A DNA stretch of 64,000 nucleotides, taken from NCBI GenBank assembly GCA_919902675.1, contig CAKKRH010000032.1, positions 1,270 through 65,269 of the forward strand. Reading direction: 5' to 3'. The DNA is from Omnitrophica bacterium GWA2_41_15 (GTDB lineage: Bacteria; Omnitrophota; Gorgyraeia; Gygaellales; UBA12090). The notes beneath the pieces are model-generated. The model did not search any database. It was not told the origin of the DNA and was given only the letters and a program-made list of their open reading frames with translations. Shown here piece by piece: positions 3,482 to 48,242 of the stretch. A program made the translations under genes and the position numbers. How positions within the stretch are numbered: the stretch's first letter is position 1; each line of letters begins with the position of its first letter.

Positions 3482-3488
3482 CCGCCTC

Positions 3489-3812
3489 CTACACGCTGCG
3501 GTAAAAACAAGACCTGTTTCCGGTATGACACGCCGCGCCCACCTGCCTCACCTTAATCAAAATGGCGTCAGCGTCACAATCGTAACTTAAGTCTTTAACA
3601 AACTGATAATGCCCCGAGGTTTCGCCTTTTACCCAGTATTCCCGGCGCGAACGCGACCAAAAACAGGTTTTTTTAAGCTTAATCGTCCTCTTTAAAGACT
3701 CCGCGTTCATATATGCCAGCATTAAAACTTCGTTGGTTTTATAATCTTGAATTATTGCCGGAATAAGCCCATTTTTATCATATTTAAAACCGATTGACTT
3801 TAAATTTATCAT
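3489..3812 (-). CDS. hisI: Phosphoribosyl-AMP cyclohydrolase
   Basis: 107 aa containing PAIIQD...[17 protein letters not shown]...[21 protein letters not shown]. It has the cyclohydrolase domain only, with no HisE part. Confidence 0.9.
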
Positions 3813-4609
3813 CGCGCCGAAACTCCTTTTTTCCTTAAATAGCTTTTAACTTCTTTAATCGTCAGATCCTGATAGTGAAACAAAGACGCGGCCAGAGCCG
3901 CGTCCGCCATGCCTTCAGTCAAAACAGCGTAAAAATCTTCTTTTTTTCCGGCTCCTCCTGAAGCAATCACCGGAATACGGACCGCTCCGGTTATGGCTTT
4001 GGTCAAATCCAGGTCATAACCTTTCTTGGTGCCGTCAAAATCCATACTGGTTAACAGAATTTCACCCGCCCCGAGTTTTTCCGCTTTTTTCGCCCATTCA
4101 AACGCGTCTAACCCCGCGGCTGTTCTGCCGCCGTTGATATATACAGTCCACGGTCCACAGTCCACAGTCGACAGTCCTTTTCTGCGGACTATGGACCGTG
4201 GACTGTGGGCTAATTTCGCGTCAATTGCCACCACAATGCACTGGCTTCCGAACTTTAATGAGGCATCCCTAATCAGTTTAGGGTTTTTTACCGCGGCGGT
4301 ATTTATGGAAACCTTATCCGCTCCGGCATTAAGCAAATCCCTTATATCCCTCAAGCTGCTTATGCCGCCTCCCACCGTAAGTGGCATAAAGACATTTTCG
4401 GCAGTGCGCCTGACCACGTCTAAGATGATCTTTCTTTTTTCGGAACTGGCGGTAATATCCAGAAAAACCAGCTCATCCGCCCCTTCTTTCTCATATCTTT
4501 TGGCCGTCTCAACAGGATCACCGGCGTCTTTCAAGTTTAGAAAATTAACCCCTTTGACCACCCTGGCGTCCTTAACATCAAGGCAGGGGATAATTCTTTT
4601 GGTAAGCAT
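3809..4609 (-). CDS. hisF: Imidazole glycerol phosphate synthase cyclase subunit
   Basis: 266 aa: [18 protein letters not shown]...[13 protein letters not shown]...ASGGAG. It overlaps hisI by 4 nt. Confidence 0.92.
4144..4205. repeat. Imperfect inverted repeat of GTCCACA-type words inside the hisF CDS (in frame)
   Basis: cagtccacggtccacagtcc (4144-4163) pairs 19/20 with ggactatggaccgtggactg (4186-4205). It encodes ..[23 protein letters not shown].. in the variable segment after AIDAK. Confidence 0.8.
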
Positions 4610-4612
4610 TCC

Positions 4613-5167
4613 TTATTTTACCTTACGGTGCAGATAGATCCTTAGCTTCTCCCAAGTCGCCTTATCGATCTTGCCGGTAATTTCCAGGCCATTATCCTTC
4701 TGGAAATCACGGATTGCTTTTCTACTGCGGCTGCCCATCAGCCCATCAATGGCTCCGGGGTCATATCCTGCGTTCTGCAGGGCAATCTGAATCTGCTTAA
4801 TTGAGGAATTGGGAGTAGGCTTGTATTTTCCGGTTAAGACATCCAGGCGCTCAGCCAATTTTGCCCTCTCCTTGGCCTCTTTATCCAAAGCCTCCTGCAA
4901 GGAAGAGACCAAGCGCTCTTTTTCCTTAAGTTCAGCCTGGATTTTTTCATCAACTGATTTATCATTGAGTGACCTTTCTAAAGACGCGATCTGTTCATCT
5001 TTTTGCTTGGCCTGGGTAGAAAGTGAACTCATCTGCCGGCGTAAATCCTGAATTTCCTCATCCAGCTCTCTGCGAGAAACCGTAGCACAGCCAGCCAGCA
5101 ACAAAACCGCTTGAATTAATAACATAGTTTTATTTATCCGCATGTTTTTTTTCCTCCTTATTTTCAA
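4613..5167 (-). CDS. Coiled-coil lipoprotein with C-terminal peptidoglycan-binding (PG_binding_1-like) domain
   Basis: Lipobox LLLAGC after a signal peptide, then a charged coiled-coil middle. The C-terminus reads IQIALQNAGYDPGAIDGLMGSRSRKAIRDFQKDNGLEITGKIDKATWEKL. The gene is embedded between hisA and hisF, overlapping hisA by 4 nt. Confidence 0.7.
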   Translation of the reverse strand: MKIRRKKNMRINKTMLLIQAVLLLAGCATVSRRELDEEIQDLRRQMSSLSTQAKQKDEQIASLERSLNDKSVDEKIQAELKEKERLVSSLQEALDKEAKERAKLAERLDVLTGKYKPTPNSSIKQIQIALQNAGYDPGAIDGLMGSRSRKAIRDFQKDNGLEITGKIDKATWEKLRIYLHRKVK

Positions 5168-5886
5168 TTCTTAGTTAAAGCTACTGCCTCTTTCAGAGAA
5201 AATCTTTTTTCATACAAGGCCTTTCCCACAATTACCCCTTTAAGATTCAGACAATCCAGGCTTGCTAATTTTTTTATATCAGCCAGGGAAGAAACCCCGC
5301 CGGAGATAATAAAATCTATTCCTGACGAGCGCAAAACATTTTTTATCGCCGGGAGATTTATTCCGGAAAGGGTCCCGTCGCGGCTGATATCGGTATAGAT
5401 TACGGTCTTTAAATTAAGATTTTCCAGGCTTTTCAAATAATTTTTAAGGCTTATTTTAGCGGTCTTCCTCCAGCCGCGTAAACCCAGCTTCTGGCCAGAG
5501 GCATCCAAGCCTAAGGCGATTTTTTGGCCGAATTCCTCTATTGCCCGGCCTAAAAAATCAATGTCCTCAATCGCCCTGGTGCCCAGGATTACCCTCTTGA
5601 CACCACAATCAATTACTTTCTGAATGGCTGATAAATCCCTTATCCCGCCGCCTGCCTCAGCCGGGATATTGATTTTCTTTATAATCTTTTTGATGACCTT
5701 AAGGTTTTTCTGCCGGCCACAAATAGCTCCGTCTAAATCCACCAGATGCAAAAATTTCGCCCCCTGATCCTGCCAATCCAAGGCCACGCTCACCGGGTCA
5801 GAAGAATAAACCTTCTTATTTAGCCTGCCTTTGGTGTATCTGACCACCCGGCCTTCTTTTAAGTCAATCGCGGGAATGATAATCAT
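5164..5886 (-). CDS. hisA: ProFAR isomerase
   Basis: 240 aa: MIIIPAIDLKEGRVVR...HLVDLDGA...GGGIR...ISGGVSS. Confidence 0.9.
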   Translation of the reverse strand: MIIIPAIDLKEGRVVRYTKGRLNKKVYSSDPVSVALDWQDQGAKFLHLVDLDGAICGRQKNLKVIKKIIKKINIPAEAGGGIRDLSAIQKVIDCGVKRVILGTRAIEDIDFLGRAIEEFGQKIALGLDASGQKLGLRGWRKTAKISLKNYLKSLENLNLKTVIYTDISRDGTLSGINLPAIKNVLRSSGIDFIISGGVSSLADIKKLASLDCLNLKGVIVGKALYEKRFSLKEAVALTKN

Positions 5887-5916
5887 GCCACGTTAGGTTA
5901 GACATATTTTAAGAAA

Positions 5917-5962
5917 CTCTAAACACTAAACCATAAATCCTAAACAAACCCAAAAGCTAAAA
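5917..5962. repeat. CTCTAAACACTAAAC...AAACCCAAAA word element (copy 1)
   Basis: ctctaaacactaaac at 5917-5931 is identical to 8471-8485, and both are followed by ..taaacaaacccaaaa. Confidence 0.75.
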
Positions 5963-6589
5963 TCATTTCAATTCAACAAAGTTCTTTAACAGCCTAAGTC
6001 CTAAGTTCTGGCTTTTTTCCGGATGGAATTGACAGGCAAAGAGGTTATCCTTGCGTATTGCCGAGGCAAACTCCAGGCCGTAATCCGTAACCGCGGCAAT
6101 GATATTTTTATCTTCAGGATCAGCGTAATAAGAATGACAAAAATAAAAAAAAGAGTTGTCTGGGATATTTTTTAATATGCCGCGTTCCTTTGTTTTTCCT
6201 TTCGCGTTTTGCCTTTTGACTTTTATTTGGTTCCAGCCCATATGGGGTACCTTGAGCCTATCCGGAAAACGCCGGACCGTTCCTTTAAACACGCCCAGGC
6301 CGCGGGCACTGCCGCCTTCTTCACTTCGCTCAAAAAGAAGCTGTAGTCCCAAACATATCCCCAAAAACGGTTTTTTAAAAATATTTTCGTGTATAGTTTT
6401 AATCAAGTTTAATCTTTTGAGTTCTCGCATCGCCTCTTTTATCGCCCCTACCCCGGGTAAAACAATCTTATCCGCTCCCCGGATTATTCCGGCATCAGAG
6501 CTCACCCTGACCTCATTAGCGCCGGCTGACTCCAGGGCTTTAGCCACACTCCTTAAATTCCCCATACCGTAATCAATGACCGCGATCAT
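5963..6589 (-). CDS. hisH: Imidazole glycerol phosphate synthase glutaminase subunit
   Basis: 208 aa: MIAVIDYGMGNLRSV...LPGVGA...GICLGLQLL...HMGWN...FHPEKS. Confidence 0.9.
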   Translation of the reverse strand: MIAVIDYGMGNLRSVAKALESAGANEVRVSSDAGIIRGADKIVLPGVGAIKEAMRELKRLNLIKTIHENIFKKPFLGICLGLQLLFERSEEGGSARGLGVFKGTVRRFPDRLKVPHMGWNQIKVKRQNAKGKTKERGILKNIPDNSFFYFCHSYYADPEDKNIIAAVTDYGLEFASAIRKDNLFACQFHPEKSQNLGLRLLKNFVELK

Positions 6590-7185
6590 AAACTTCCCTT
6601 AGTAGATAATATTCCTTTTATCCGCGGGTCAATGCTCACTGCCTCCCTTAAAGCCCTGGCCAGGGCCTTAAAAACCGCCTCAATGATATGGTGTAAATCC
6701 TCACCTGAAATTATCTCAATATGCAAGGTTAGGCCCGCGTTAACCGCCAAAGCCCGCAAAAACTGTTTTAAATAATTTAGGCTGTATTCTTTACTATGGA
6801 CTATGGACTGTGGACTGTGGACTGTAAGCTTTGAGTACGGCCTACCGCTCAAATCCAGGCTTACCTCAACCAGGGCCTCATCAATGGGCACCGAGGCAAA
6901 ACCAAAACGGCGAATACCCTGTTTATCCGCCAAGGCTTTTTTTATGGCTAGACCCAAAACTATTCCCACATCTTCGTTGGTATGATGAATATCCACATCC
7001 AGATCACCCCGGGCTTTAAGCGTTAAATCAAACAAGCCGTGCCTGGCGAAAAGATTAAGCATATGGTTTAAGAAGCCTATCGGGGTGTGGATACTAAAAC
7101 TGCCTCTGCCGTCTAAATTTATCTTGAGGCTAATCCTGGTTTCCGTTGTCTTCCTCTCAATTACGGCTTTTCTTTTATTATTCAT
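6586..7185 (-). CDS. hisB: Imidazoleglycerol-phosphate dehydratase
   Basis: 199 aa: RKTTETRISLKINLDG...GDLDVDIHHTNEDVGIVLG...GEDLHHIIEAVFKALARAL. Confidence 0.9.
   Translation of the reverse strand: MNNKRKAVIERKTTETRISLKINLDGRGSFSIHTPIGFLNHMLNLFARHGLFDLTLKARGDLDVDIHHTNEDVGIVLGLAIKKALADKQGIRRFGFASVPIDEALVEVSLDLSGRPYSKLTVHSPQSIVHSKEYSLNYLKQFLRALAVNAGLTLHIEIISGEDLHHIIEAVFKALARALREAVSIDPRIKGILSTKGSL
6795..6825. repeat. Heptamer array (TATGGAC x2, TGTGGAC x2, TGT) inside the hisB CDS (in frame)
   Basis: Read directly from the sequence. It encodes TVHSPQSIVHS and uses the same word (GTCCACA/TGTGGAC) as the hisF element. Confidence 0.85.
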
Positions 7186-7220
7186 AAGTAAAATTTTTGC
7201 GTCTTTGCGGTTCTGCGGTT

Positions 7221-8441
7221 TTATTCAAACCTCGCCTGGACTGACTCCAGGTGTTTGTCTAATCCCTCGATACCGGCTATTTTTTCTAAAGGAGCTCGCG
7301 CGTTCTCCAGGGCTTTCTTAGAATAGCTGATGATATGGCTGGATTTAATGAAATCCGCCAAAGAGAGTCCGGAAAAAAACCTGGCTGTCCCGCCGGTGGG
7401 CAGGACATGGCTGGGCCCGGCAATATAATCCCCGATAGCTACCGGGCTATACTGGCCCAAGAATACCGCCCCGGCATTTCTTATTTTTTTAACAATCTTA
7501 CGGGGATTTTTAATCAATATCTCTAAGTGTTCAGGGGCTATCCTGTTAGCCACCTCAATAGCCTGCTCAAGATTTTTAACTAAAACCGCGTAGCCTGAAT
7601 TTATCTCCTGCCTGAAATATTTAGCTTGAGCCTTGGAGGTGGTAATCAAGACCGCCAGGCCGCCGCGATGCTCACCCTGGGCTAAAAGGTCAGCTTTAAC
7701 ATAAGAATTGTGGCTGTGGCGGTTGGCAATCACCACCAATTCCGTAGGCCCGGCCAGCATATCAATATCCACATAACCGTAAAGCTGGCGCTTGGCCTCG
7801 GTAACATAGGCATTGCCGGGCCCGACAATTTTATCTACCCGGCTAACCGTCTTTGTTCCAAAGGCCAGGGCGGAAATTGCCTGAGCTCCGCCTATCTTAT
7901 AAATTTCATCCACCTTAAGCAGGTCAGCCGCTGCCAGGATGTGAGGATTGATATTTCCGCTTTTATCCGGAGGCGTGGCCAAGGATATCCTTTTTACCCC
8001 GGCAATCTTAGCCGGCAAAACCGTCATATACACGGTAGAGACTAACGGGGCCTGTCCTCCCGGAACATATACGCCCACGGATTCAATAGGGCTAAACTGC
8101 TCACCCAAAAACACCCCGTCTTTATTTTTGATATTCCAATCCTTTTTTATCTGCCTTTTATAGAAATTAGACACATTCTCAATTATCTGCTTAAGGCTGG
8201 AAACGAAATCCGGACTGATATTCTGATAAGCCCCGCTGATTTCCGCCTGGGAAGAGCGGATCTGCTTTGGTAGGAGCTTAACCTTATCGTATTTTTTGGT
8301 ATAGCGTGTTAAGGCTTCGTCTCCGTATAAACGCACATCTTCAACAATCCTGGCTACCCGGGAAATAACCTTAGGCTTGCGGCAGAATGAGCGGTTATAA
8401 ATCTTATCTAATTCTTTTGAACCGTATTTTATGATCTTCAT
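7221..8441 (-). CDS. hisD: Histidinol dehydrogenase
   Basis: 406 aa: ...GVYVPGG.APL.STVYMTVLPAKIAGV...GPGNAYV..AK...DMLAGPTE...QGEH..., a typical HisD pattern. Confidence 0.9.
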   Translation of the reverse strand: MKIIKYGSKELDKIYNRSFCRKPKVISRVARIVEDVRLYGDEALTRYTKKYDKVKLLPKQIRSSQAEISGAYQNISPDFVSSLKQIIENVSNFYKRQIKKDWNIKNKDGVFLGEQFSPIESVGVYVPGGQAPLVSTVYMTVLPAKIAGVKRISLATPPDKSGNINPHILAAADLLKVDEIYKIGGAQAISALAFGTKTVSRVDKIVGPGNAYVTEAKRQLYGYVDIDMLAGPTELVVIANRHSHNSYVKADLLAQGEHRGGLAVLITTSKAQAKYFRQEINSGYAVLVKNLEQAIEVANRIAPEHLEILIKNPRKIVKKIRNAGAVFLGQYSPVAIGDYIAGPSHVLPTGGTARFFSGLSLADFIKSSHIISYSKKALENARAPLEKIAGIEGLDKHLESVQARFE

Positions 8442-8470
8442 CTAAGTTGGGTTAAATACCTTTTGTGAAG

Positions 8471-8562
8471 CTCTAAACACTAAACAAACCCAAAAACTAA
8501 AACCCAAAACATCTATTTTTGAGTTTTGTATTTATGGTTTTGAGTTTGTTTAGAATTTAGGG
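8471..8562. repeat. Long imperfect hairpin of CTAAAC/CCAAAA words (copy 2 of the 5917 family)
   Basis: Left arm ctctaaacactaaacaaacccaaaaactaaaacccaaaac, right arm gagttttgtatttatggttttgagtttgtttagaatttaggg, partially complementary. Located between alaS and hisD. Confidence 0.7.
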
Positions 8563-8583
8563 TTTCGGATTTAAGGTTTATGA

Positions 8584-11196
8584 TTATATCGCCTGACGGA
8601 TGATTTCCTTGAACTTCTCCAGGGCTTTATCCAGACCCGCGGGATTATCTCCTCCGGCCTGGGCCATGTTCGCCCGGCCTCCTCCGGAACCTTCAATTAA
8701 AAGGGCGGCTTCTTTAATTATTTTTGAAGCGTCCAGGCCCTTGTCTACTAAGTCAGCGGATAAGCTGACTGTCAGCCAGGCCTTTTGAGCTTGCGATGAA
8801 CCCAGGCAAAGGGCATAAGAAGAAACCCTGGATTTGATCAAATCGCTTAACTGGCGCAGTAGGCCTATATCCACATCCTGATACCGCGAGCAAATCAGGC
8901 TTGAACCTTTAATGACCTCAGACTTACCGGCCAATTCTACCGTATCGCGCTTAAACAGCTCCAGCCTTAAGCGGGAAAACTCCTTTTCTAAATTCCCTAA
9001 TTTTCTTAATTTATCCTCCAGTAAGGCTAAAACCTTATCCTCTGAAGATTGGGTTAAATCTATAAGCTTAGTAATAATTTCCTGGGCCTGCCTATAGGCC
9101 TCCCAGGCGGCCTTACCGGTTGAGGCCTCTATTCTACGCACCCCCTTAGCGATAGAACCTTCAGAAATTATCTTGAATAAACCGACCTGGGAGGAATTCT
9201 CCAGGTGGGTCCCTCCGCAAAGCTCTTTAGAAAAATCCTGAATATCCACCAGGCGCACTTTGTCCTCATATTTCTCATTAAACAAGGCAATAGCGCCTGA
9301 TTTCTTTGCCGTCTTCAGGCTCATCGCTCTTTGCGAAATTTCCAAACTTAACAAAATTTTCTCCTGGACTAAATCTTCAATCCGCTTCAGGTTTTGCGCG
9401 GATATTTTATCGGAATGAATAAAGTCGAAACGCAAACGATCAGGCTCAACTAAAGAGCCGGCCTGCTGGATATGAAAACCGAGAACCTGCCGAAGTGATG
9501 CCTGTAAAAGATGGGTCGCGGTATGGGCCCGGGCGATTGCCTTTCGCCTGGAGGAATCAACCTGACAATTAACCAAATCAGCGCTTTTTAGTTTCCCCGC
9601 GCTCAAGGTGCCGCGATGCAGATACACCTTTCCTTCTTTTTGGGTATCCTCTACCTCAAAAACGCTGTTTCCTTTTATGATTCTGCCTTGATCGCCGACC
9701 TGCCCTCCGGACTCCGCGTAAAAAGGGGTTTTATCCAAAACAATCTCGCAGGGTTCTCCCCGGCCAACCGACCGGACCACTTCACCATCCTTAATTATCT
9801 TTAAAATCCCGGCTTCTTTCAGAGAAAGCTTTTGATAGCCTGAAAATTTTGTTTCTTCCAATTTGGAAATCAAGGCGCTTGCGGTAAAAATCCCCCGGCT
9901 GATTTTACTGGATTTTTTGGAACGTTCTTTCTGTTTTTCTAAATCCTGATTAAATTCTGCTTCATTAATTTCAAAGCTATTCTCTTTTGCCCAGGCTTTG
10001 GTAATTTCAAAAGGTATGCCGTAAGTATCATAAAGCTTAAAAGCGGTATGCCCGCTAGACTCAAGGCCGGATGAAGCATCCTTAAATTCATTTTTCAAAA
10101 TCCTCGGGGCATCTTTTAAAACCGAGATAAAATTCTTCTCCTCAGTATTTATAACCTCGGCAATATTTTTTGCTTTAGCCTTTAACTCCGGATAAACCCC
10201 AAAGAAAATATCCGCCACAATCGGAGTTAGTTTATACAGAAACGGCTCTTTTATTCCCAGGGTATGTCCGTGAAACCCGGATTTACGGATAAGTTTACGG
10301 ACCACATATCCTCTTTCTTCATTAGAAGGAATGACCCCGTCGTAAATAGCGAAAACAATCGCTCGAATGTGGTCAGCGATGGCATTGATCAGCGGATAGC
10401 GGATAGCGGATAGCGGATAGCTAAGAATGGCTTTAATTATGGGCTTGAAGATATCAATTTCAAAGTTGCTTTTGACTCCCTGCAGGACTGAGGCCATTCG
10501 CTCTAAACCCATACCGGTATCTATGTTCTTATTGGGAAGCGGCTCTAGGACTCCTTTGGCAAGGCGGTTAAACTGGGTAAAGACCAGATTCCAAATCTCC
10601 ACAAACCGGCCGCAGGAGCAAGCCGGACCACAATCCGGCTTTCTACAGCCGGCATCAAGCCCATAATCGAAAAAAATCTCCGAGCACGGGCCGCACGGCC
10701 CGTTGGGGCCGTCTTCAATGGCATTAGCCGGCCAGAAATTATCTTTGGCTCCTAAGCGAACAATCCTCTCCTTGGGAAAATTGACCTTTTTGCTCCAAAT
10801 AGCGCGGGCCTCGGCATCATCCTGATACACCGAAACCCAGAGCACTTCAGGCTTAAGCTTTAACTCTTCGGTCAGAAATTCCCAGGCCCAGAGAATTGCC
10901 TCTTCTTTAAAGTAGGAGCCAAAAGAAAAATTACCCAGCATTTCAAAGAAAGTATGGTGACATGCGGTTACCCCCACCTTATCCAGGTCATCGGTTCTCA
11001 AACAACGTTGACAGCTGACTGCCCGGTTAAAATCTGAAACCTGCCCCATAAATTCATTCTTGAATTGGGCCATCCCAGCGGAAGTAAAAAGCACCGTAGG
11101 GTCATCCACGGGAACAAGCGAAGCTGAAGGTATAAGCTTATGCGCTCTTTTGGCGAAAAAATCAAGATATCTTTTACGTAATATATCCGTATTCAT
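8584..11196 (-). CDS. alaS: Alanine--tRNA ligase
   Basis: 870 aa with a class II core (FTSAGM, GNFSFGSYFK), an editing domain (HTATHLL...CGGTH) and a C-terminal DHHA1-like region (GGGRANMAQAGG). Confidence 0.95.
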   Translation of the reverse strand: MNTDILRKRYLDFFAKRAHKLIPSASLVPVDDPTVLFTSAGMAQFKNEFMGQVSDFNRAVSCQRCLRTDDLDKVGVTACHHTFFEMLGNFSFGSYFKEEAILWAWEFLTEELKLKPEVLWVSVYQDDAEARAIWSKKVNFPKERIVRLGAKDNFWPANAIEDGPNGPCGPCSEIFFDYGLDAGCRKPDCGPACSCGRFVEIWNLVFTQFNRLAKGVLEPLPNKNIDTGMGLERMASVLQGVKSNFEIDIFKPIIKAILSYPLSAIRYPLINAIADHIRAIVFAIYDGVIPSNEERGYVVRKLIRKSGFHGHTLGIKEPFLYKLTPIVADIFFGVYPELKAKAKNIAEVINTEEKNFISVLKDAPRILKNEFKDASSGLESSGHTAFKLYDTYGIPFEITKAWAKENSFEINEAEFNQDLEKQKERSKKSSKISRGIFTASALISKLEETKFSGYQKLSLKEAGILKIIKDGEVVRSVGRGEPCEIVLDKTPFYAESGGQVGDQGRIIKGNSVFEVEDTQKEGKVYLHRGTLSAGKLKSADLVNCQVDSSRRKAIARAHTATHLLQASLRQVLGFHIQQAGSLVEPDRLRFDFIHSDKISAQNLKRIEDLVQEKILLSLEISQRAMSLKTAKKSGAIALFNEKYEDKVRLVDIQDFSKELCGGTHLENSSQVGLFKIISEGSIAKGVRRIEASTGKAAWEAYRQAQEIITKLIDLTQSSEDKVLALLEDKLRKLGNLEKEFSRLRLELFKRDTVELAGKSEVIKGSSLICSRYQDVDIGLLRQLSDLIKSRVSSYALCLGSSQAQKAWLTVSLSADLVDKGLDASKIIKEAALLIEGSGGGRANMAQAGGDNPAGLDKALEKFKEIIRQAI
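10392..10421. repeat. Heptamer array (GCGGATA x4.3) inside the alaS CDS (in frame)
   Basis: The sequence reads gcggata gcggata gcggata gcggata gc. It encodes LSYPLSAIRYPLI just before the conserved IADHIR motif. Confidence 0.85.
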
Positions 11197-11317
11197 CTGT
11201 AATTAATGACCCCAGACTTTGTAAACGTCAAACAAGGAATTTTGGATCGCTATTCATTTATCTCTCTTAACCTAAACCTGAGCCTTAACCTTTACAATTA
11301 AAATAAGGGGCGTTTGA

Positions 11318-11836
11318 TTAAATCTCCGGCATATCCATCACCTTGGCTATGGTTTCGCGGGAAAAGCCGCGGCGGGTGAGATAGCCGTATAATTTGGGCT
11401 TAATTTTCTCAGCCGGCTCTTTTCTTTCTTTAAGTTTATTAAACTGCCTTTGGGTTAATTCCCGCGCCAGGCAGACCTCATTAACCTCTTTTTTCTTTAA
11501 ACTAATCAGCTCCCGAATAAGCTCGTCAGATACCCCTTTTAATTCAAGCTCCCGCTGAATTGCCTTGAAGCCCAACGGCTTACTCAGGCGGCCTTCTATC
11601 CAGAAATTAGCGAATTCCCGGTCATTAATATAGCCGTTTTCTTTAAAATATCTTACTAACTCATCAATCAGCGCGGCTTCAAAATTTTTAAACTTAAGCT
11701 TACCCCGAAGCTCCAATTCAGAGCGCGGCCTTAGCTTCAGCAGGCGCCAGACATAATTACGCCCGGATGATTTATCCCGCGCTTTCTTACCACAGCCCAC
11801 AGCAAACCGCTCCCTGGCGCAAACAGACCGAGTCAT
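11318..11836 (-). CDS. recX: RecA regulator RecX
   Basis: YVWRLLKLRPRSELELRGKL...ELVRYFKENGYINDREFA, three-helix-repeat style. It lies between htrA and alaS, near the usual recA-recX-alaS neighbourhood. The start codon is uncertain. Confidence 0.75.
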   Translation of the reverse strand: MTRSVCARERFAVGCGKKARDKSSGRNYVWRLLKLRPRSELELRGKLKFKNFEAALIDELVRYFKENGYINDREFANFWIEGRLSKPLGFKAIQRELELKGVSDELIRELISLKKKEVNEVCLARELTQRQFNKLKERKEPAEKIKPKLYGYLTRRGFSRETIAKVMDMPEI

Positions 11837-11964
11837 AATTGCTTTTTCTCTTACGGCTGAGGCGGGGTTTTCCAGCCACGCCTCGTCGAGAGCGAGACAA
11901 GAATGTCCCGCCTATCCGTAAAAAAATGCTCATTTGGCACAGTCTGAGAGTGCGGGATAAATCC

Positions 11965-13449
11965 CTATTCACTCTTAATCACAAAGAAACCCCGGACAGT
12001 GCGCACCAAACAATCGCCTTTGGCGGCCTGAATTACCTTTTTGTAGGTAATAATATTGTCAATATAAATCCGGTTAATTTCCAAAATCACATCTCCGGAG
12101 ACTATTCCTGCCTCTTCAGCCGGACTATCCGGCTGAACATCCACAACCGCTGCCCGGGCGTAATCGCCTAAGCGCGATTTCCCGGCTGAATCCGGAGTAA
12201 TCGCCTCAACCTTAATCCCTCTCCAATAATCTGACGACGTTTCGCGGGCGGCAGGTTTACCCGCCTCGTCAATATTTTCAGGCCGGCTGCCGATAACCGC
12301 GTTTAAAGATAAAGGTTTTTTGTCTCTGAGCATGTCCAGTTTAATTTTGTTTCCCGGCTCGCTGTTTCCCACTATTTTAAGCAGGACATTGGCATTATTT
12401 GTCTCTTTTGCGTCAAGCTTCAAGATGATATCGCCATTCTTTATTCCCGCCTTGGCGGCCGGACTGTCCTCTAAAACCTGAGAGACCAAAACCCCTTTTT
12501 TATCGGCCAAGCCAAAATAAGCGGCTAATTTATCGTCTAAATTCTGGATGCTGATTCCCAGCCACCCGTAAATAACCTTTTTCCCCTCAATAAGCCTCAA
12601 GACAATCCGCTTGGCGGAATTAGAAGGCACGGCAAAACCAACTCCCTGATATCCTCCGCTGGTAGAGAATATAGCCACATTTATTCCGACTATCTCGCCT
12701 TTTAGATTAACCAGCGGACCGCCGGAATTACCCGGATTTATCGCGGCATCGGTCTGGATCAGGTCGCCATAATCCCTGTCTGATGAAATCCTGCCTAAAG
12801 AGCGATGCAAAGCGCTGACCACGCCCGCGGTTACCGTGGGCTCGGGATTATGGATAGCAAAACCAAAAGGATTGCCTATGGCCACCACCCACTGCCCGAT
12901 CCTCAAGTTGTCAGAATCCCCTAATCTTACCGCGGGGAAATTACCGCCTTCAATCTTAATCACCGCTAAATCCGAGCGCTTGTCCACTCCCTTAATCTCA
13001 GCCTTAAATTCCCGGCCGTCAGGTAAAGTAACCGTGATTTTATCCGCTTCAGCCACCACGTGTTCATTGGTCAGGATATAACCTCGCGCGTCAATAATCA
13101 CCCCTGAGCCCAAACCCAGCTGTTTATATTCCCTCTGAGGAAGCTCACCGAAAAAATCTTCAAAAAATCTGCGGAAAAACTCATCTTCTAACTGACCTCC
13201 GTCTTGAGGACCGCCAAATTGATAGCGGCGCGCGGACGAAGCCCCAACCTTTTCCGTATGCTCAATGCTGATGGATACTACGGCCTTACCTACCGTCTCC
13301 GCCACCAGCTCCACCGCCTTCTCAAAGCTATCCGGATATCCCCCTTCTTGGGCATACGCGCTGTAAAACACGGGGCTCAAAATCCCACCCACAATCACAC
13401 CGGCAATCAAACCCGAAACGATAAGTAGATATCGTATTTTATTTCGCAT
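11965..13449 (-). CDS. htrA: HtrA/DegP-family periplasmic serine protease with two PDZ domains
   Basis: 494 aa with an N-terminal TM/signal, catalytic TNEHV..D..GNSGGPL, and two PDZ-like segments. Confidence 0.9.
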   Translation of the reverse strand: MRNKIRYLLIVSGLIAGVIVGGILSPVFYSAYAQEGGYPDSFEKAVELVAETVGKAVVSISIEHTEKVGASSARRYQFGGPQDGGQLEDEFFRRFFEDFFGELPQREYKQLGLGSGVIIDARGYILTNEHVVAEADKITVTLPDGREFKAEIKGVDKRSDLAVIKIEGGNFPAVRLGDSDNLRIGQWVVAIGNPFGFAIHNPEPTVTAGVVSALHRSLGRISSDRDYGDLIQTDAAINPGNSGGPLVNLKGEIVGINVAIFSTSGGYQGVGFAVPSNSAKRIVLRLIEGKKVIYGWLGISIQNLDDKLAAYFGLADKKGVLVSQVLEDSPAAKAGIKNGDIILKLDAKETNNANVLLKIVGNSEPGNKIKLDMLRDKKPLSLNAVIGSRPENIDEAGKPAARETSSDYWRGIKVEAITPDSAGKSRLGDYARAAVVDVQPDSPAEEAGIVSGDVILEINRIYIDNIITYKKVIQAAKGDCLVRTVRGFFVIKSE

Positions 13450-13515
13450 TTTTTGCTTCTGTTTTCAAAACCACCTCTTCACTCATAACTTATCACTTAT
13501 AACTTCTCCCCACAT

Positions 13516-14568
13516 CTATTCTTTAAGCTTAGCCGTAGCCTGCTTACGAACTTTATCTTCTAATTCATTAAGCATCTTAGGGCTGTTTTTGAGAAACTGG
13601 ATTGCCTGGTCTCTTCCCTGGCCTATTTTCTCGTTGTTGTAAGCAAACCAACTTCCGGACTTTTGCAAAATACCCATTTCCGAAGCGGTATCCACGATAC
13701 TTCCCGCCCGGGAAATACCTTCGGCAAAGAGAATTTCAAACTCCGCCTCCCTGAAAGGAGCGGCTACTTTATTTTTTACCACCTTCGCCTTAACCCGGTT
13801 ACCAATAATCGTTTCCCCGGATTTAATCTGTTCTTTCCTTCTTAAATCCAGGCGGACCGAAGAATAAAATTTCAAGGCCCTTCCTCCGGGAGTAGTTTCA
13901 GGATTACCAAACATAACCCCGATCTTTTCGCGCAGCTGATTAATAAAAATAATACAGGTCTTGGATTTACTGATAGCGCCGGTAAGCTTTCTTAAGGCCT
14001 GAGACATCAGCCTGGCCTGCAGGCCCATATGACTGTCTCCCATTTCCCCTTCAATCTCCGCCCGGGGGGTAAGGGCGGCTACTGAATCTATCACCACCAC
14101 ATCCACGGCATTGGAGCGCACCAGGGTCTCCGCGATCTCTAAAGCCTGTTCGCCGGTATCCGGTTGAGAGATAAGCAGCTCATCCAGGTTAACCCCAACC
14201 TTTTTGGCATAGGTAGAATCAAAGGCATGCTCGGCATCAATAAAAGCCGCCACCCCCTTAGTCTTCTGGACCTGGGCAATCACGCTTAAGGTAAGGGTGG
14301 TTTTACCGGATGATTCCGGGCCAAAAATCTCAACCACCCTTCCCCGGGGAAGCCCGCCTATACCCAAAGCCAAATCTAAAGAAAGCGCGCCTGTGGGGAT
14401 TGCCGCGACATCCACCTTTATATCGCTGGAAAGCTTCATAATTGAGCCCTTGCCAAACTGCTTTTCTATATGGGCCACGGCCAATTCTAGGGCCTTTTGA
14501 CGGTTAAGATCATCTTCTTTTTTAACTATTGGTGCTGTCTCCGCGACAGCCTTTTTATCCTGCGCCAT
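13516..14568 (-). CDS. recA: Recombinase RecA
   Basis: 350 aa: [37 protein letters not shown]. Confidence 0.97.
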
Positions 14569-14609
14569 AATAACGCCTCCTATTGTTAAATTTTTAAATG
14601 AAAAAGTTG

Positions 14610-14642
14610 AGGTTTAGGTTGAGACAAACTCAACCTAAACCT
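14610..14642. repeat. 14-bp perfect-stem hairpin (AGGTT words) within the predicted recA 5' UTR
   Basis: aggtttaggttgag (14610-14623) is the reverse complement of ctcaacctaaacct (14629-14642). It lies between the predicted recA promoter and the recA ATG. Confidence 0.8.
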
Positions 14643-14689
14643 TGACCTTAACCTTTATGATTAGTTTCCACTAAAAAAGTGTGGAAATT

Positions 14690-14718
14690 ATTATAACTTA
14701 GCAGACTGCTTAAGTCAA
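14690..14718 (-). promoter_or_regulatory. Predicted sigma70-type recA promoter (TTGACT-17 nt-TATAAT)
   Basis: On the minus strand, TTGACT (14718-14713) is followed by a 17-nt spacer taagcagtctgctaagt and TATAAT (14695-14690). This is about 120 nt upstream of the recA ATG. The spacer contains the palindrome AGCAG-N-CTGCT (14700-14710). Confidence 0.6.
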
Positions 14719-14727
14719 GCTTGACTT
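14712..14727. promoter_or_regulatory. Perfect 16-bp palindrome AAGTCAAGCTTGACTT forming back-to-back -35 boxes
   Basis: The sequence is self-complementary as read. It gives TTGACT on both strands, for recA on the minus strand and the GGDEF gene on the plus strand. Confidence 0.6.
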
Positions 14728-14749
14728 TTCCGGCGCTCTGTGTTAAATT
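14721..14749 (+). promoter_or_regulatory. Candidate promoter for the GAF-GGDEF gene (TTGACT-17 nt-TAAATT)
   Basis: TTGACT at 14721-14726, a 17-nt spacer, and TAAATT at 14744-14749. A hairpin gttgaaaaat/atttttcaac (14756-14778) follows in the 5' UTR. Confidence 0.4.
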
Positions 14750-14883
14750 GAAATTGTTGAAAAATCTTATTTTTCAACAATTTCATCCTGAGGAGGGACC
14801 TAAGTCCCGACGAAGGATCTCATACAGATATCTTTCAAGATAAGAGTTTTTAGGGATCTTATAACGGCCTCAAATTTCCTAAT

Positions 14884-16053: not shown

Positions 16054-16103
16054 GACACAAAAAGCTCTTTTACCGCGTTATAGATTATTTTCTCGGGGAT
16101 ATT
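16050..16103. repeat. 54-bp direct repeat, left copy (duplicate of the aroB 3' end)
   Basis: ttaagacacaaaaagctcttttaccgcgttatagattattttctcggggatatt is identical to 18254-18307. It contains the GGDEF gene stop codon (16051-16053). Confidence 0.95.
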
Positions 16104-16228
16104 ATCAGCACAACCCAACACCCTTGTATCTGCGTATTATAAGCACTTGCCTTCGTCACCCCTGCGCTTCGCCCTGCCCGCCTACGGTGAGGTCTCGCCT
16201 TCGGCGGACGGGTTAACATAATACGACC

Positions 16229-16869: not shown

Positions 16870-16888
16870 ATATTAGTCCCTCATTTAT

Positions 16889-16917: not shown

Positions 16918-17016
16918 GAAAATCTTTGAAATTATCTCGTTTTGTAATAAGCATGAATAGCGGCTTGGAGGAAATTATTTTGCTCTAAAGCATAAAGATT
17001 CTGCGTAATTTGGGCA

Positions 17017-40148: not shown

Positions 40149-43100
40149 TCACAAGAGATAATTTACCAAGATCTTAATCTGTTCCGCATCGAATGGCTTA
40201 CCCACTACTGGTATGGCCTTCCTTTTAACATATTCCTTTAGCTTCTCAATTTCTTCCGCATATCCCGACATGATTAATATTGGCATATCTTTTGTCTGCG
40301 CGTTCTCCTTAAGCATACCAATTACTTCATAACCACTCATCGGCATTTTTATATCCAGCATTAACAAATCAGGAATAGCAGTTTTTATTTTTTCTAATGC
40401 TTCCTTTCCATCACCGGCTTCGCTAAAATTAGAATACCCGCTTGCCTGTAAAATTTTCCTTAAAACATTCCTCACTTCTGGCTCATCATCAACAATCATA
40501 ATGGACTTCTTTAATCTTGTTTCTCTTTCGCTAACACAAAAACCGTAGACCCGCTCCAATAAATCCTTACTATTACTTGCATCGCCAGGATAGGTAGCGT
40601 ATCCATATGAAAAACCCGTCCTAAGTTGTTCATCAATTTCAAAAACAGACACTTTTATAATCATCTTCAATCGTGTCATCATGTTGGATGCCTCTTGTTT
40701 GTTAACTTGTATAAAAACAATGATCTCATTTTCACTCCCTTTAATTACAAAATCCCTGCTTCGTATAACTTTTTCTAAAGCCGTCCCTATTGAAAGGAAA
40801 ACTTTTTGTACTCTATCTTTTCCGGACTCTTTCTCAACCTCTAAATAATTATCTAACCTGATAATAAATATTGAAAATTCCTTATTTTCTTTTTTAGCTT
40901 CTCTAATTCTCTCCTCTATCGTTTCGCGCAGGAACTCTTCTTTGTTATACTTCGGCAGGGTAAAGCTAAACTTGCTGCCCTTGCCAAGGCGGCTTTCCAC
41001 CCAAATCTTACCGTGATGCAGCTCAACCAGGGCTTTAGCTATAGAAAGGCCTAAACCCGTGCCTTTTTCGCCGAATCCGGGGACGCGGTCAAACTGCTGA
41101 AACTTGCTAAATACCTTAGGAAGGTCATCCCCTGAGATGCCCACACCAGTATCAGCTACGCCGCACTCTACTTCATTTTCTTTCTCTAAAACCGAAATCT
41201 CTATTGAGCCTTCTTTAGTGAATTTAAGAGCGTTGGCGATAAGGTTGGTCAAGACCTCGATTATCTTCTCCGTGTCAGCATAAATATACAGCTGTTTTTC
41301 AGGAAGGTTGACTTTCAATTCCAGCCCAGCATCTCTTGCGCGTTTAGAAAAAGAGGAGATAAGTCCACTAATTAAACTGTTAAGGTCAGCTGAGCCTCTT
41401 TTTAGCTCCACCTTTCCCGCCTCAATCTTGGAGATATCCAAGAGGCTGTTGATAATATTTGCCAATCTATCTATATTCTTCTTTGCGGTAGTAAGAATTT
41501 TTTCCTGCTTTTCATTTACCTTGCCGGCAAGTCCGTCTAAAACTAGAGCCAGGCCTTCTTTGGTAATAGAAAGCGGGGTCCTGAGTTCATGGGAGACTAT
41601 AGAGACAAATTCGGTCTTCATTCGATTCACTTCTTTCTCTTTGGTGATATCTCTAAGAATAATAACTATACCGATAGTTTCGTTCTTTGCGTTTCTCACC
41701 GGCGCTGTATCACAGTGTAAGGATACAGGCTCTCCCTGCACAGATACCGTTAGATCCTTAAAAACTAAACAGCTAATATCTGCACACTTTTTTAATACCT
41801 CCTCTAAACCAATGGCCTCGGCCTTTTCTTTCCATATTTTAGCCGTAACCTGCTCCTCGAACCTAAAACCCAACAACTGCCTGGCCCGCGGATTTATAAC
41901 CATCACCTCACCGCATTCATCCACCATCACCACGCCCTCAACCATGCTCTCTACCATACTCTCCATCTTTGACTTTTCAGCAGTGATCACTGCCCGCAGT
42001 CTTTCAATAGCATTAGAGGCCTGATTGGCAATGGTGCAGGTAAGCTCAATATCCTCTTCTGAAAAGGCATTCTCTTTACAGCTGGAGACATTAATCATCC
42101 CGACAGTTTTACCATGCGCTGTAAAAGGAACATTAAAGAAACTATGTAATTCCTTAAATTCCCTTTTTTCTTTATGGTTTTGGCTATCGGTAGCCAAACC
42201 ACGGCCTTCTGGCCTGGAGGTTACCTCTGTAGTGCTGGGAATAAGCATGGCGCTCAGGCGTTTCTTACGGATATTCTCTCCAGTTAAGATAGAGGTAGAG
42301 TCAATCAGGCCATCTTTTACCTCATCCGTAAATTTAGCACTTTCGGAATAGACGGGCTTTAGAGTAATGTTGGCGGTATGGGTATCAAATAAAAGCGAGG
42401 CGCAGATATCATAATTGATTGTCTTGAACAATGATTCCATGATAAACTTGAGTAACGTCTGATAATCCAAGGTATAAGAAATAGCATTGGAAATCTCATA
42501 TAAAACAGATAATTCCAAAGTCCTCTCTTTTACCTTCTTCTCGAGGTCTTTAGAATATGATTCAATCTCAGCCTTTGCTTTGGTAAGTTCGGCGGTTCGT
42601 TCTTCAATCATCCCTTCTAAACTTTTAGAATATTTTTCAATTTCTGCTTTTGCCCCTGCCAAATCCTCCATCATATTCAAGGTTGCTTCCTGGGTTTGGG
42701 CTAAATCTTTGGTGCGCTCCTTAGCCTTCTTCTCTAAAGTCTTGGCAAATTCCTCTAATTCTGCCTTAGACTTCTCTAAGTTAGCAATCAGCCCATTTAT
42801 CCGGCGCATATCGTGGGCTACGCCGACAATGCCGATTATTCGTCGTTCTTCAGGAGCTTTCAGCTTTCGGCTTTCAGCTTTCGGCTCTAGATCTTCTGCT
42901 GATAGCTGAGAGCTGATGGCTGATGGCTGACTCTCATACATTACTGAACCAGAGAAACTCATCGGTATCTTCCCGCCATTTTTAGTCACATAAATCAAAT
43001 CAAAATCGCGTACCGAACCTTCCTCAACCAGTTTCCTTAGGCGTGTTCCCTTAAGGAGAAGTTCTTCCTCAAAAATATTTTCCACCGGCTGACCGATCAG

Positions 43101-46615: not shown

Positions 46616-48242
46616 ATCGTATGTCTTTTTTTAACGCCAATTTCCTCTTAGAAAGTATGAGGTTAGCTGCATCTAAAATAAGCGCGACCTCGCCAGAGCC
46701 AAGAATAGTGCAGCCGGTAAAATATTTGCCCTCCTTGGCTAACCTTAACGGCTTATGCACAATCTCCTGGGTCTGGCCTAACTCGTCTACCGCCAGACCT
46801 AATCGGTCTTCATCCTTTCGGACAATGACGATAGGCTGTGAATTTTGGTCTAAGCGGGGCAGATTAAACAACTCATTTAAACGGGTGATAGGGATATCCT
46901 CGCCTTCAAAGACAATGGCCTCATAATTCAACATCCCCTTTATATCTTCTTTTTTTACATGAATTAACCTCTCCACATTGGCTAAAGAAATGGCGTATGC
47001 TTTAGGGCCTACCTTGACGAATAAGACCTTAAACACTGCCAGGGTTAAAGGTATCTCTAAGATAAATTTTGTGCCTTTTAAGGGAAGCGACTCTACTTTC
47101 ACTGAGCCGCCCAAAGATTCAATCCTTTGCTTGACGATATTCAGGCCAAAGCCTCTGCCTGAAATTTGGGTAACCTCTTTGGTAGTGCTCACTCCGGAAA
47201 AGAGCGCGTTAACCAATTCTTCCTGAGCTGGATGGCTGGAAATTAGCTTGAGCCTTGAGGCATACCTTTTTACTTCTTCCCAATCAATGCCTCTTCCATC
47301 ATCGCTAACCTCTATAACCGCAAATCCACGCGCTCTTTTAGCAGAGAGTTTTAAGGTGGCTTGAGAAGGTTTTTTCAGGCCCTCTCTTTCTTTGGGGATT
47401 TCTATGCCATGGTCAATGGCATTTCTGACTAAATGCACCAGGGGCTCAGCCAAGGCCTCCACAATTGAGCGGTCTAATTCTATGTCGCCGCCAACCATCT
47501 CTAAATTAACCTCTTTTTTCTCTTGCTTAGCTAAGTCTCTTACTAAGCGTGGAAAACGGTTAAAGACGAAATCTAAAGGCACGGTGCGCGACTGCATAAT
47601 ATTAAACTGCAGGTCAGAGACTAATCTGGTTAAGGTATCTACGAAACCGGAAAGCTCGGGGTTTTGCAAAGTTTCCTTAATCCGCTCTAATCCCAGTTTA
47701 TTAATCAACAGCTCTTCGGATAAGCGCATCAATAAATCCAGCCTTTCTACCTTAACCTCGATGCTCTTGATCTTCTCAAGAGAGGCAGGCTCTTCCAGGG
47801 ATCCCTCGGAAGCCGCGGTTTCGTCGTGCCTGCCTGCCGGCAAGGCAGGCGTCGTGCGTATTGCGTCGCACGTAGCCAGAGCCTGTAATTTTTTGACTAA
47901 ACCCGCGGTGTCCAGTTCTTCTTTATCCTTGGAAACTGCTTTTAGGCTTGCTTCTAAGGCATCAAAACATTCAAATAATAAATCGGCGCAAGCGCCAACC
48001 TTTAATTCCTTCTTTTTTGTCCTGACTAAGACATCCTCTATGGCATGGCATAGGGCAGAGGTCTTGAAATAACGCGCGATTCCGGATATGCTCTTGTAGG
48101 TATGGCAGGCGTGCAGCATAGGGCCAAACAGGATCAGATTACCCGGGGTCTTCTCTAATTTAATCAGAGAACTATTCAGGGTATTCAGGTATTGCCTTGC
48201 CTCTCTTAGGTAAGTGTCTTTGTATTTGTCTATAATCTGCAT
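46614..48242 (-). CDS. cheA: Chemotaxis histidine kinase CheA (no recognisable P2 domain)
   Basis: 542 aa. It has Hpt (ACHTYKSISG), dimerisation and HATPase domains (DHGIE...GRGFGLNIV) and a C-terminal CheW-like domain. The P1-P3 linker carries a palindromic low-complexity insert (47822-47872). Confidence 0.9.
   Translation of the reverse strand: MQIIDKYKDTYLREARQYLNTLNSSLIKLEKTPGNLILFGPMLHACHTYKSISGIARYFKTSALCHAIEDVLVRTKKKELKVGACADLLFECFDALEASLKAVSKDKEELDTAGLVKKLQALATCDAIRTTPALPAGRHDETAASEGSLEEPASLEKIKSIEVKVERLDLLMRLSEELLINKLGLERIKETLQNPELSGFVDTLTRLVSDLQFNIMQSRTVPLDFVFNRFPRLVRDLAKQEKKEVNLEMVGGDIELDRSIVEALAEPLVHLVRNAIDHGIEIPKEREGLKKPSQATLKLSAKRARGFAVIEVSDDGRGIDWEEVKRYASRLKLISSHPAQEELVNALFSGVSTTKEVTQISGRGFGLNIVKQRIESLGGSVKVESLPLKGTKFILEIPLTLAVFKVLFVKVGPKAYAISLANVERLIHVKKEDIKGMLNYEAIVFEGEDIPITRLNELFNLPRLDQNSQPIVIVRKDEDRLGLAVDELGQTQEIVHKPLRLAKEGKYFTGCTILGSGEVALILDAANLILSKRKLALKKDIR

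Follow-up and report, generated by a model that had tools for sequence, protein, structure and literature searches.

The alaS gene and its heptamer array

The stretch of DNA analysed here (the window, 64,000 nt in length) comes from contig CAKKRH010000032.1 of Omnitrophica bacterium GWA2_41_15 and carries alaS, the gene for alanyl-tRNA synthetase (AlaRS), within which a short tandem array of a seven-nucleotide unit, or heptamer, is translated. All coordinates are window positions, except where the handle of another locus precedes them, and those of the features are collected in Table 1. The alaS open reading frame (ORF) matches the TIGR00344 model over its full length (E=1.6e-260, positions 2-847 of 847), and its orthologs in Candidatus Omnitrophota reach amino acid identities of up to 94%. 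Tandem Repeats Finder (TRF) gives the array as 4.4 copies of AGCGGAT with 100% matches, and the longest perfect period-7 run at this site is 31 nt. The gene is on the minus strand, where the unit reads TATCCGC and stands in more than three head-to-tail copies. No period-7 arrays are found in shuffles of the window. All three phases of the unit are translated, which gives the peptide SYPLSAIRYPL at amino acids 259-269 of AlaRS, in the context KAIL-SYPLSAIRYPL-INAIADHIR.

An earlier note on this DNA had reported GCGGATA x4.3 at 10392-10421, translated inside the essential alaS just upstream of the IADHIR helix. The array is real and extends one base further, and both the gene and the position of the peptide were correctly named. 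The note was also right that gain or loss of one or two units would shift the reading frame. It had further seen the word CGGATA in intergenic DNA at about 56850-56900. The word does occur there, in loose ACGGAT-like words that form no array, and a link with alaS was rejected, as CGGATA is a common hexamer of the window: with its complement it is found 97 times (50 and 47), about four times the 12 per strand expected from base composition. No other GCGGATA or TATCCGC array exists in the window with up to two mismatches allowed, and no complementary partner of the alaS array was found there. RNA folding predicts no structure for the array (z = 0.06).

A second assembly, L160 (ENA ERZ1286166 contig_28, 2.155 Mb), represents the same organism and is 99.84% identical to the window; its positions 1-19620 correspond to 44364-64000 of the window's reverse complement. 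All differences between the two are single-base homopolymer indels or point changes and leave the heptamer arrays unaffected, and the alaS array of L160 has four units, matching the window. An assembly artefact was rejected as the source of the array, because arrays at this place are also present in the second assembly and in relatives that were sampled independently. L160 has the character of a long-read assembly, and alaS, hisB, hisF, trpE and secDF are each split in it by single-base homopolymer deletions. The fragmented alaS was considered as a possible frameshift allele at the array, and this too was rejected: the gene is broken at other places, by single-base errors in homopolymers.

A pre-existing linker in AlaRS

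The array lies in a variable linker, termed here the slot, where the catalytic core of AlaRS meets the helical tRNA-recognition domain. The slot aligns without net insertion (plus or minus one residue) to the 'KTAAALAGTTDLSNSSLRV' linker that precedes IADHIR in the solved AlaRS 9jc7, and the AlaRS families of 3hxu and 1riq also match at this linker. Its sequence is hypervariable among orthologs, and inserts of +7 to +17 amino acids are tolerated. In the array-bearing clade the linker has exactly 22 residues in 20 of 21 proteins. In a more distant group, array-bearing linkers have 22-25 residues, which is within the array-free range. Possession of an array does not make the linker longer, so the array was written over an existing linker and nothing was inserted. 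Thus the alaS array occupies a pre-existing variable linker and adds no length to it.

Turnover of the unit among relatives

In an AlaRS protein alignment of the window and its 60 best homologues, all clade members (about 60-94% identity) have a peptide of seven-residue logic at one and the same set of columns. The peptide itself differs: SYPLSAIRYPL, DYQLSTINCQL, DYRLLTIDYRL, SYRPSTIDHRP and SHQPSTINHQL are all found. Slot DNA was compared in eleven alleles, and units are listed in Table 1. From 94% down to about 62% identity, orthologs have a heptamer array at the same codons and of constant total length; the total slot length is equal in the window, L081, L154, L084, L082, L155, L085 and L156. 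Arrays with other units fill the slot in Omnitrophota whose identity is about 53%. Among orthologs the unit changes in register, as in TATCCGC, TATCAAC, TATCGAC and CATCGAC, and the peptide is the corresponding three-frame read-out: TATCCGC gives YPLSAIR, TATCAAC gives YQLSTIN and CATCGAC gives HRPSTID. Accordingly, the slot is old and widespread, its unit turns over, and its length is fixed.

The earlier note had proposed that the array is either strongly constrained or recently inserted. Constraint is borne out for length, with no change in copy number, and fails for the unit sequence and the peptide, since several peptides are found at the same codons. Recent insertion is contradicted by arrays in relatives down to about 62% identity and by linkers that are no longer than array-free ones. 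The note also named a peptide conserved in relatives with non-repetitive DNA as the observation that would undo its proposal; in L081 and L154, which conserve the peptide, the DNA at the slot is repetitive as well. The slot array is not everywhere intact, and decayed forms are found in four AlaRS proteins (P0004, P0017, P0021 and P0022).

The slots of L156 and L085 alternate two unit variants, which results in a period-14 substructure and suggests that copying sometimes proceeds in two-unit steps. In a distant relative the alaS slot (L116 1332-1484) has TACTGCG x4 followed by a near-inverted CGCACAA/CGCACGA array. This layout of an array and an inverted array is typical of intergenic spacers, and the linker is here 14 amino acids longer than that of the window.

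Distribution of slot arrays

At the protein level, any 9-residue stretch of the linker was compared with the three-frame translation of a perfect heptamer array. Such an array is fitted at 8 or more of 9 residues by 35 of 110 Omnitrophota AlaRS linkers, 20 of them at 9/9. Among 550 control segments of equal length from the same proteins, none reaches 8/9 and two reach 7. The fitting linkers contain at least 15 different units, which include TATCCGC, TATCAAC, CATCGAC, AAGCTCC, TCAAGCC, TCAGCTG, GTGTCAA, TACGGAC and GTTCAGA. About 60% of Omnitrophota AlaRS are without a slot array.

At the DNA level, a slot was scored as periodic at 17 or more period-7 matches out of 21. By this measure period 7 is found at the slot in 7 of 11 close relatives, in 7 of 64 distant metagenomic relatives and in none of 64 AlaRS genes from other phyla, the latter two sets being among the matches listed. 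The other periods from 4 to 11 all stay below this threshold in the same sets. The genes from other phyla, again among the matches listed, were obtained by a genome scan with the full AlaRS alignment, which rests on universal motifs, and were reused as a negative control. A clade-specific metagenome scan added one close relative (L085) and 68 distant ones among the matches listed, and with them seven more slot arrays. Units in distant relatives are TACTGCG, CAGAACC, GAGCCAC, ACCAGAA and GCTGTCA. The metagenomic loci with a slot array are those richest in arrays overall.

Concerted evolution at constant length

Divergence of the slot is decoupled from that of the gene. In comparisons with the window, L084 has 94.3% nucleotide identity over the rest of the gene and 12 differences in 33 slot positions. 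L081, at 89.2%, has none; L154, at 83.0%, has one, and L158, at 64.5%, has three. All four units of L084 depart from those of the window at unit positions 5 and 6, with the same replacement bases in each. This in-register pattern was reproduced in 0 of 100,000 random placements of nine differences, and its analytic probability is about 8e-8. The mean unit identity is 0.87 within arrays and 0.68 between orthologs at homologous positions. Since identity within arrays exceeds that between orthologs, and changes are shared in register, the copies of the slot array undergo concerted evolution.

Copy number does not take part in this change. No copy-number variants are present among approximately 50 near-identical assembled alleles, which form ten clusters at 90% identity and show rare point variants only. 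Likewise, no change in array copy number is found in about 30 clade orthologs, among the 21 array-bearing clade members, or between the window and L160. The sole length changes at the slot in the clade are palindromic inserts with lengths that are multiples of 3. In a phase-variable contingency locus, copy number varies between close strains and the gene is dispensable. The alaS array shows no such variation, and its gene is an alaS equivalog, which is presumably not dispensable.

Interpretation

We favour the view, with a probability of roughly 0.6, that the alaS array is a heptamer repeat akin to the short tandemly repeated repetitive (STRR) arrays of cyanobacteria, which took over a sequence-tolerant, putatively surface-exposed AlaRS linker and is homogenised at constant length. 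The array would have no function of its own, and the peptide would be a passive three-frame read-out of the current unit that the linker tolerates. Copies would be homogenised at the DNA level with no net change in length. One candidate process is a transient 7-nt misalignment of the nascent strand, followed by copying of a neighbouring unit and realignment, i.e. templated conversion; another is mismatch repair inside out-of-register slipped duplexes. Variants that shift the frame, i.e. copy changes that are not multiples of three units, are presumably lethal and would be removed by selection. Because of this, and because no length variant was observed, only length-neutral outcomes are seen. 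Homologous recombination between alleles may additionally shuffle slot variants, and palindromic mini-elements may occasionally insert into arrays, being kept in coding sequences only at multiple-of-3 lengths.

Several points weigh against this view. The homogenising mechanism is inferred, and no intermediate or conversion tract was seen directly. The position of an array often coincides exactly with a domain boundary (in AlaRS, the sensor kinase and CheA; see below), as a functional pause-site or linker model also predicts. Conservation of the array among the window, L081 and L154 is estimated to be only mildly above the expectation for codons with a conserved amino acid, with P ~0.1 per pair. 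In sliding windows the alaS alleles are mosaic, and L084 resembles L082 more than the window in the vicinity of the slot. From these sequence comparisons, allelic recombination rather than change in situ accounts for some of the mismatch between slot and gene tree. Arrays must be homogenised internally all the same, as L084 and L082 differ in register. Finally, an AlphaFold2 prediction on a 29-sequence alignment has a mean predicted local distance difference test score (pLDDT) of 68.5, with values <50 over most of the catalytic half, the slot included. A predicted model of this kind is too poor around the slot to support surface exposure of the linker.

A functional nucleic-acid element could also explain why, among deeply diverged relatives, the same codons still hold arrays that have remained repetitive. 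This may be an mRNA or DNA binding platform for proteins of the cold-shock or S1 type, with one heptamer per domain, or a translational pause at the domain boundary that aids co-translational folding of AlaRS. The interdomain location of the AlaRS and sensor-kinase arrays and of the CheA palindrome agrees with such a role, as does the similar size of arrays within coding sequences (4.4-5 units), and regulatory roles have been proposed for intergenic heptamers of Beggiatoaceae and Nostoc (PMC4679880; bioRxiv 10.1101/2022.06.06.494920). Yet 15 or more unrelated units in one slot imply that there is no conserved sequence-specific reader. In addition, most Omnitrophota AlaRS are array-free and some clade members have decayed arrays, and the alaS array has neither a predicted RNA structure nor a complementary partner in the window. 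As neutral repeats survive in tolerant linkers too, location does not discriminate between the two explanations. A functional element thus appears unlikely.

Ordinary slippage is the textbook mechanism for such repeats, and heptamers have been proposed to be prone to it, according to the accounts of Mrazek, Guo and Shah (2007) in PMC4679880 and PMC4692102. Arrays would expand and contract, only changes of three units (21 nt, 7 amino acids) would survive, and these would homogenise the copies. Relatives differ in the length of their hisF loops and in how many arrays these contain, the copy number of intergenic arrays ranges widely and reaches 19 units, and the insert in the L158 alaS array has the length of three units (21 nt). 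This insert, however, is a palindrome and not three added units, and none of about 170 AlaRS proteins has an array longer or shorter by 7 amino acids. With four units, a slip of three would remove or double nearly the whole array. Moreover, the linker was replaced without net change in length, which is impossible by expansion alone. Slippage as the sole process is therefore considered improbable.

A recent insertion in this strain, ready-made and brought by a small mobile element or a duplication, would account for the perfection of the array. Such arrays do receive insertions of small dispersed palindromic elements, and closely related genomes differ in which intergenic arrays they have, as in the hisD-alaS spacer. 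This explanation is very hard to maintain when the linker is no longer than in array-free orthologs or solved AlaRS structures, when relatives with 89% and 83% nucleotide identity have an identical array and one with 64.5% has its unit, and when the window has no other TATCCGC array that could be a donor. Least credible of all is selection at the protein level for a 7-residue repeat, Y-x-L-S-x-I-x, with the DNA repeat as a by-product: the Y, L, S and I positions do recur in many clade members, but the variable residues co-vary as one unit in three frames (P/A/R, Q/T/N, R/T/D), synonymous positions are identical between units, distant orthologs have unrelated heptamer-derived peptides (VSSVKCQVS, KPQASS, YGLRTTDYG), other phyla have ordinary sequence at the slot, and no ortholog was found that keeps the peptide repeat with non-repetitive codons.

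The preferred reading, an STRR-like repeat homogenised within a tolerant linker, bears on an old question. The origin of heptanucleotide repeats has been unexplained since their discovery in cyanobacteria, and they are usually studied intergenically, where length is unrestricted. A frame-locked array in an essential gene is a natural experiment that exposes the length-neutral part of the process. Overwriting without added length, together with alike copies and unit turnover in a lasting slot, argues for templated conversion over simple expansion. Templated conversion in turn gives testable predictions on the replication or repair machinery of these organisms. Linkers of Omnitrophota core proteins that are dictated by DNA repeat dynamics also matter for alignment, phylogeny and annotation.

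A bolder proposal, which we put forward only tentatively and regard as doubtful at present, is that a dedicated or polymerase-intrinsic process rewrites tolerant DNA into 7-nt arrays in a length-neutral manner and keeps them homogenised, in Omnitrophota and perhaps in other heptamer-rich lineages. Were such an active process to exist, the variable loops of AlaRS, HisB, HisF and HisH would be permanent slots in which the peptide is rewritten wholesale as the unit drifts. It would constitute an unrecognised mutation-driven generator of linker diversity in core proteins, and would provide a first handle on the mechanism of STRR-type repeats, a problem open since 1990.

Relation to known repeats

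The nearest known parallels are the STRR heptamers of cyanobacteria and the small dispersed repeats of Nostoc (see below). The STRR heptamers of heterocystous cyanobacteria are reportedly found also in an essential gene, that of the RNase P RNA (rnpB), as Mazel in 1990 and Vioque in 1997 (the latter cited in PMC2858038) are said to have described. Their canonical units are CCCCAGT (STRR1), TTGGTCA (STRR2) and CAACAGT (STRR3). The arrays of the window resemble them in having tandem 7-nt units, many unit sequences per genome and a strong lineage-specific excess. STRR sequences are mostly in short spacers between co-directional genes; in the window, intergenic DNA is enriched in arrays, and five of nine stringent ones are in coding sequences. 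The two are also alike in that an array can reside in a variable part of an essential gene without loss of function. They are not STRR sequences in the strict sense, as the host belongs to Omnitrophota and the alaS unit is TATCCGC. A further difference is that the alaS array is in a protein-coding frame, and since 7 is not a multiple of 3 its length is locked. A probable further difference is that the alaS slot is filled across the phylum with unit turnover, and that hisB, hisF and hisH are alike in this.

That tandem repeats evolve in concert, through gene conversion or slipped-strand mispairing, is a general principle. Transient misalignment can also template mutations, as in Kunkel's dislocation model and Ripley's quasi-repeat correction. 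The alaS slot displays the marks of concerted evolution: copies are alike within an array, in-register substitutions spread, and no net change in length is needed. Concerted evolution is usually described for long arrays such as rDNA and satellites, and templated mutagenesis for single events; neither is known to be described for an array like that of alaS, which is 31 nt long and frame-locked in an essential bacterial gene.

Elsewhere in prokaryotes, an excess of heptamers among long simple repeats was described by Mrazek, Guo and Shah (2007), as their work is summarised in PMC4679880 and PMC4692102. The same two papers relate a proposal that polymerase slippage with a 7-nt footprint causes heptamer arrays. 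G-rich GGGAATC and GGGGAYT arrays are known from Xanthomonas and Nostoc (PMC4692102), and TAACTGA arrays from Beggiatoaceae (PMC4679880). As in the window, period 7 is favoured in these repeats, and copy number and sequence vary among close relatives. They concentrate in intergenic DNA near gene ends, and intergenic DNA is enriched in arrays in the window too. The repeats of the Mrazek, Xanthomonas and Beggiatoaceae studies differ in that those within coding sequences are under-represented or have multiple-of-three units, and that one unit dominates (TAACTGA, GGGAATC). In the window many units coexist, five of nine stringent arrays are in coding sequences of housekeeping or signalling genes, and they occur at orthologous codons.

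A translated heptamer array is also known from neuO, the capsule O-acetyltransferase gene of Escherichia coli K1, where a heptanucleotide variable number tandem repeat (VNTR) in the 5' coding region makes a phase-variable contingency locus (PMC13001214). In both genes the frame is kept only at copy numbers divisible by three. Unlike alaS, neuO is non-essential and its copy number is free; alaS is essential and its array, invariant in every allele examined, is no contingency locus. A full-text literature search returned nothing on heptamer arrays in Omnitrophota, nor any report of housekeeping genes with conserved in-frame heptamer slots in which the unit turns over.

Nested palindromic inserts

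Three alaS arrays are interrupted by inserts, of 21 nt in L158, 42 nt in L159 and 51 nt in L157. Each has a length divisible by three and contains inverted repeats. For five palindromic inserts, stems of 7-8 bp are predicted, with mixed z values of -4.0, -3.4, -1.7, -0.8 and -0.6. The L158 insert (2992-3012) is identical to a 21-nt palindrome of the window, CCTGCCTTGCCGGCAGGCAGG in the sense orientation, which resides in a cheA ORF (46614-48242) and is flanked there by heptamer-like ACGCAnn units. Variants of CCTGCCTTGCCGGCAGGCAGG are found in the hisF array of L157 (7595-7615) and at L158 2074-2094. Four dispersed, near-identical copies were thus seen, and the sequence is absent from the orthologous sites of other relatives. 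In coding sequence the 21-nt palindrome presumably survives because its length is a multiple of 3.

By analogy, the 21-mer of CheA and alaS looks like a putative mobile mini-element of the small dispersed repeat (SDR) or repetitive extragenic palindromic (REP) kind. SDR of Nostocaceae are hairpin-forming mobile mini-elements of 21-27 nt, described by Elhai et al. (2008) as quoted in PMC5861425, PMC4390886 and PMC3116915. According to PMC5861425, similar repeats were not found outside Nostocaceae. Judged by these descriptions, the Omnitrophota inserts are similar: they are 21-51 nt long, palindromic, dispersed, present or absent among orthologs, and located inside genes. They differ in host and in residing inside heptamer arrays rather than in the highly iterated palindrome HIP1. 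SDR-like palindromic mini-elements appear to have counterparts outside Nostocaceae, in an unrelated phylum. An origin of the arrays from 7-bp target-site duplications, left by cycles of insertion and excision of palindromes, was considered and rejected, as the L158 insert interrupts a unit without a duplicated heptamer.

Arrays in other genes

In-frame arrays are found in other genes of the window and its relatives (Table 1). The hisB and hisF arrays lie within the catalytic-domain matches of their proteins, and the corresponding segments of orthologs vary in sequence and, in hisF, also in length. Units at the hisB slot of relatives are ACAGTCC/ATAGTCC in L158, TTTCAGC in L082, GCTGTCA-like in L081 and L157, AGAGTTC in L155 and L085, and AAAGTCA in L159. 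At the hisF slot, relatives have different units and in some cases two arrays, and nested palindromes and variation in length occur as well; hisH arrays are found in L155 and L157. In the window, two arrays 11 nt apart lie in an ORF (40149-43589) that encodes a hybrid sensor kinase of 1146 amino acids, with the architecture HAMP-PAS-GAF-PAS-HisKA-HATPase-GGDEF-REC. Thus hisB, hisF, hisH and the linkers of signalling proteins behave like the alaS slot.

The hisF unit is the exact reverse complement of the hisB unit. The two arrays are 2.6 kb apart in the same operon, and a duplex of about 30 bp could form between them. Long-range RNA pairing as a function was rejected, since none of the relatives has this complementarity; its probable source is a restricted set of unit families.

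Table 1. Positions of the alaS array and of other repeat features in the window, and units of the alaS slot in relatives.
Feature	Unit or description	Position	Strand	Basis or context
alaS	alanine--tRNA ligase, intact, 870 aa	8584..11196	(-)	TIGR00344
AlaRS variable linker (slot)	22 codons between NFEIDIF and IADHIR	10380..10445	(-)	
Perfect heptamer array in alaS	TATCCGC x4.4	10391..10421	(-)	TRF, 31-nt run, translation
hisB (IGPD) array	ACAGTCC x4.7, aa 121-131	6793..6825	(-)	
hisF array	GGACTGT x5, aa 145-156	4143..4177	(-)	
Two sensor-kinase arrays	TCAGCCA x4.7 and GAAAGCT x4.6 (sense)	42855..42930	(-)	PAS-GAF linker
Putative 21-nt palindromic mini-element	CCTGCCTTGCCGGCAGGCAGG (sense)	47829..47849	(-)	in-frame PALPAGR, CheA P1-dimerisation linker
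hisD-alaS intergenic arrays	array and reverse complement	8486..8585; 8484-8588		
alaS slot, window and L081	TATCCGC x4			L081, 91% aa identity
alaS slot, L154	TATCCGT, then TATCCGC x3			85% aa identity
alaS slot, L084	TATCAAC x3, then TGTCAAC			95% aa identity
alaS slot, L082	TATCGCC TATTGAC TATTGAC TATCGAC			92% aa identity
alaS slot, L155	TATCCGC TCTTCCG CATCCGC TATCCGC			
alaS slot, L085	TATGAAC TATCAAC TACGAAC TATCAAC	L085 6004-6108		
alaS slot, L156	TATAGAC CATCGAC TATAGAC CATCGAC	L156 1582-1686		

Heptamers in the window and its clade

The window has 9 stringent period-7 arrays (9-12 across criteria), compared with 0-3 for each other period from 5 to 12. This over-representation of period 7 relative to other periods was assessed in the window (64 kb) and in about 100 kb from close relatives. 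The alaS array is one example of a heptamer tendency shared by this lineage. The density of period-7 arrays is 14 per 100 kb in the window and 20 per 100 kb in ten close relatives. Among the matches listed, it is 4 per 100 kb in 68 more distant metagenomic relatives and 0.8 per 100 kb in 1.39 Mb around alaS from 79 genomes of other phyla. Some units of the window, such as TTGGTTA and CCACAGT, resemble canonical STRR units without being identical to them.

The five stringent arrays within coding sequences are those of hisF, hisB, alaS and the sensor kinase, which has two; three others are intergenic and one straddles the end of a gene. When the 70 ORF-based genes are scanned at the protein level, the same five arrays are recovered together with a single weaker candidate, and shuffled proteins give none. 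Arrays are enriched between genes: 3-4 of the 9 stringent ones lie in the 11% of the window that is intergenic, and with looser TRF scoring most arrays are intergenic. The intergenic arrays extend to 19 units, compared with the 4.4-5 units of those in coding sequences.

Intergenic arrays followed by their reverse complement are found in the hisD-alaS spacer and at 1522-1596, 1860-1995, 24168-24330 and 35208-35262. They sit between co-directional genes (trpE-rpsP-yajC, hisD-alaS and others) and are predicted to fold as strong hairpins, with z values of -4.4 to -7.0. The hairpin at 1522-1596 has a predicted dG of -40.5 kcal/mol (z -6.95), and three other sites have z values of -4.4 to -5.8. From these folding predictions, the hairpin arrays could act in termination or in stabilising the mRNA. 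In the window 142 nt separate hisD from alaS, compared with 5 nt in the 91% identical L081.

An array at 28552-28585, with the sense unit CCTCTAA, contains TAA and extends over the thiE (28567-29241) stop codon and the spacer of 18 nt that precedes thiC (27265-28548). The repeat appears to supply the stop codon region of thiE. Of the 70 ORF-based genes, 61 are on the minus strand. A much longer tandem repeat, with a 276-bp unit x8.6 at 82% identity, is found at 51909-54269 in ORF 50556-54524, which encodes a methyl-accepting chemotaxis protein of 1322 amino acids. It corresponds to a poly-HAMP array of 9-10 HAMP domains, an ordinary domain repeat with no relation to the heptamers.

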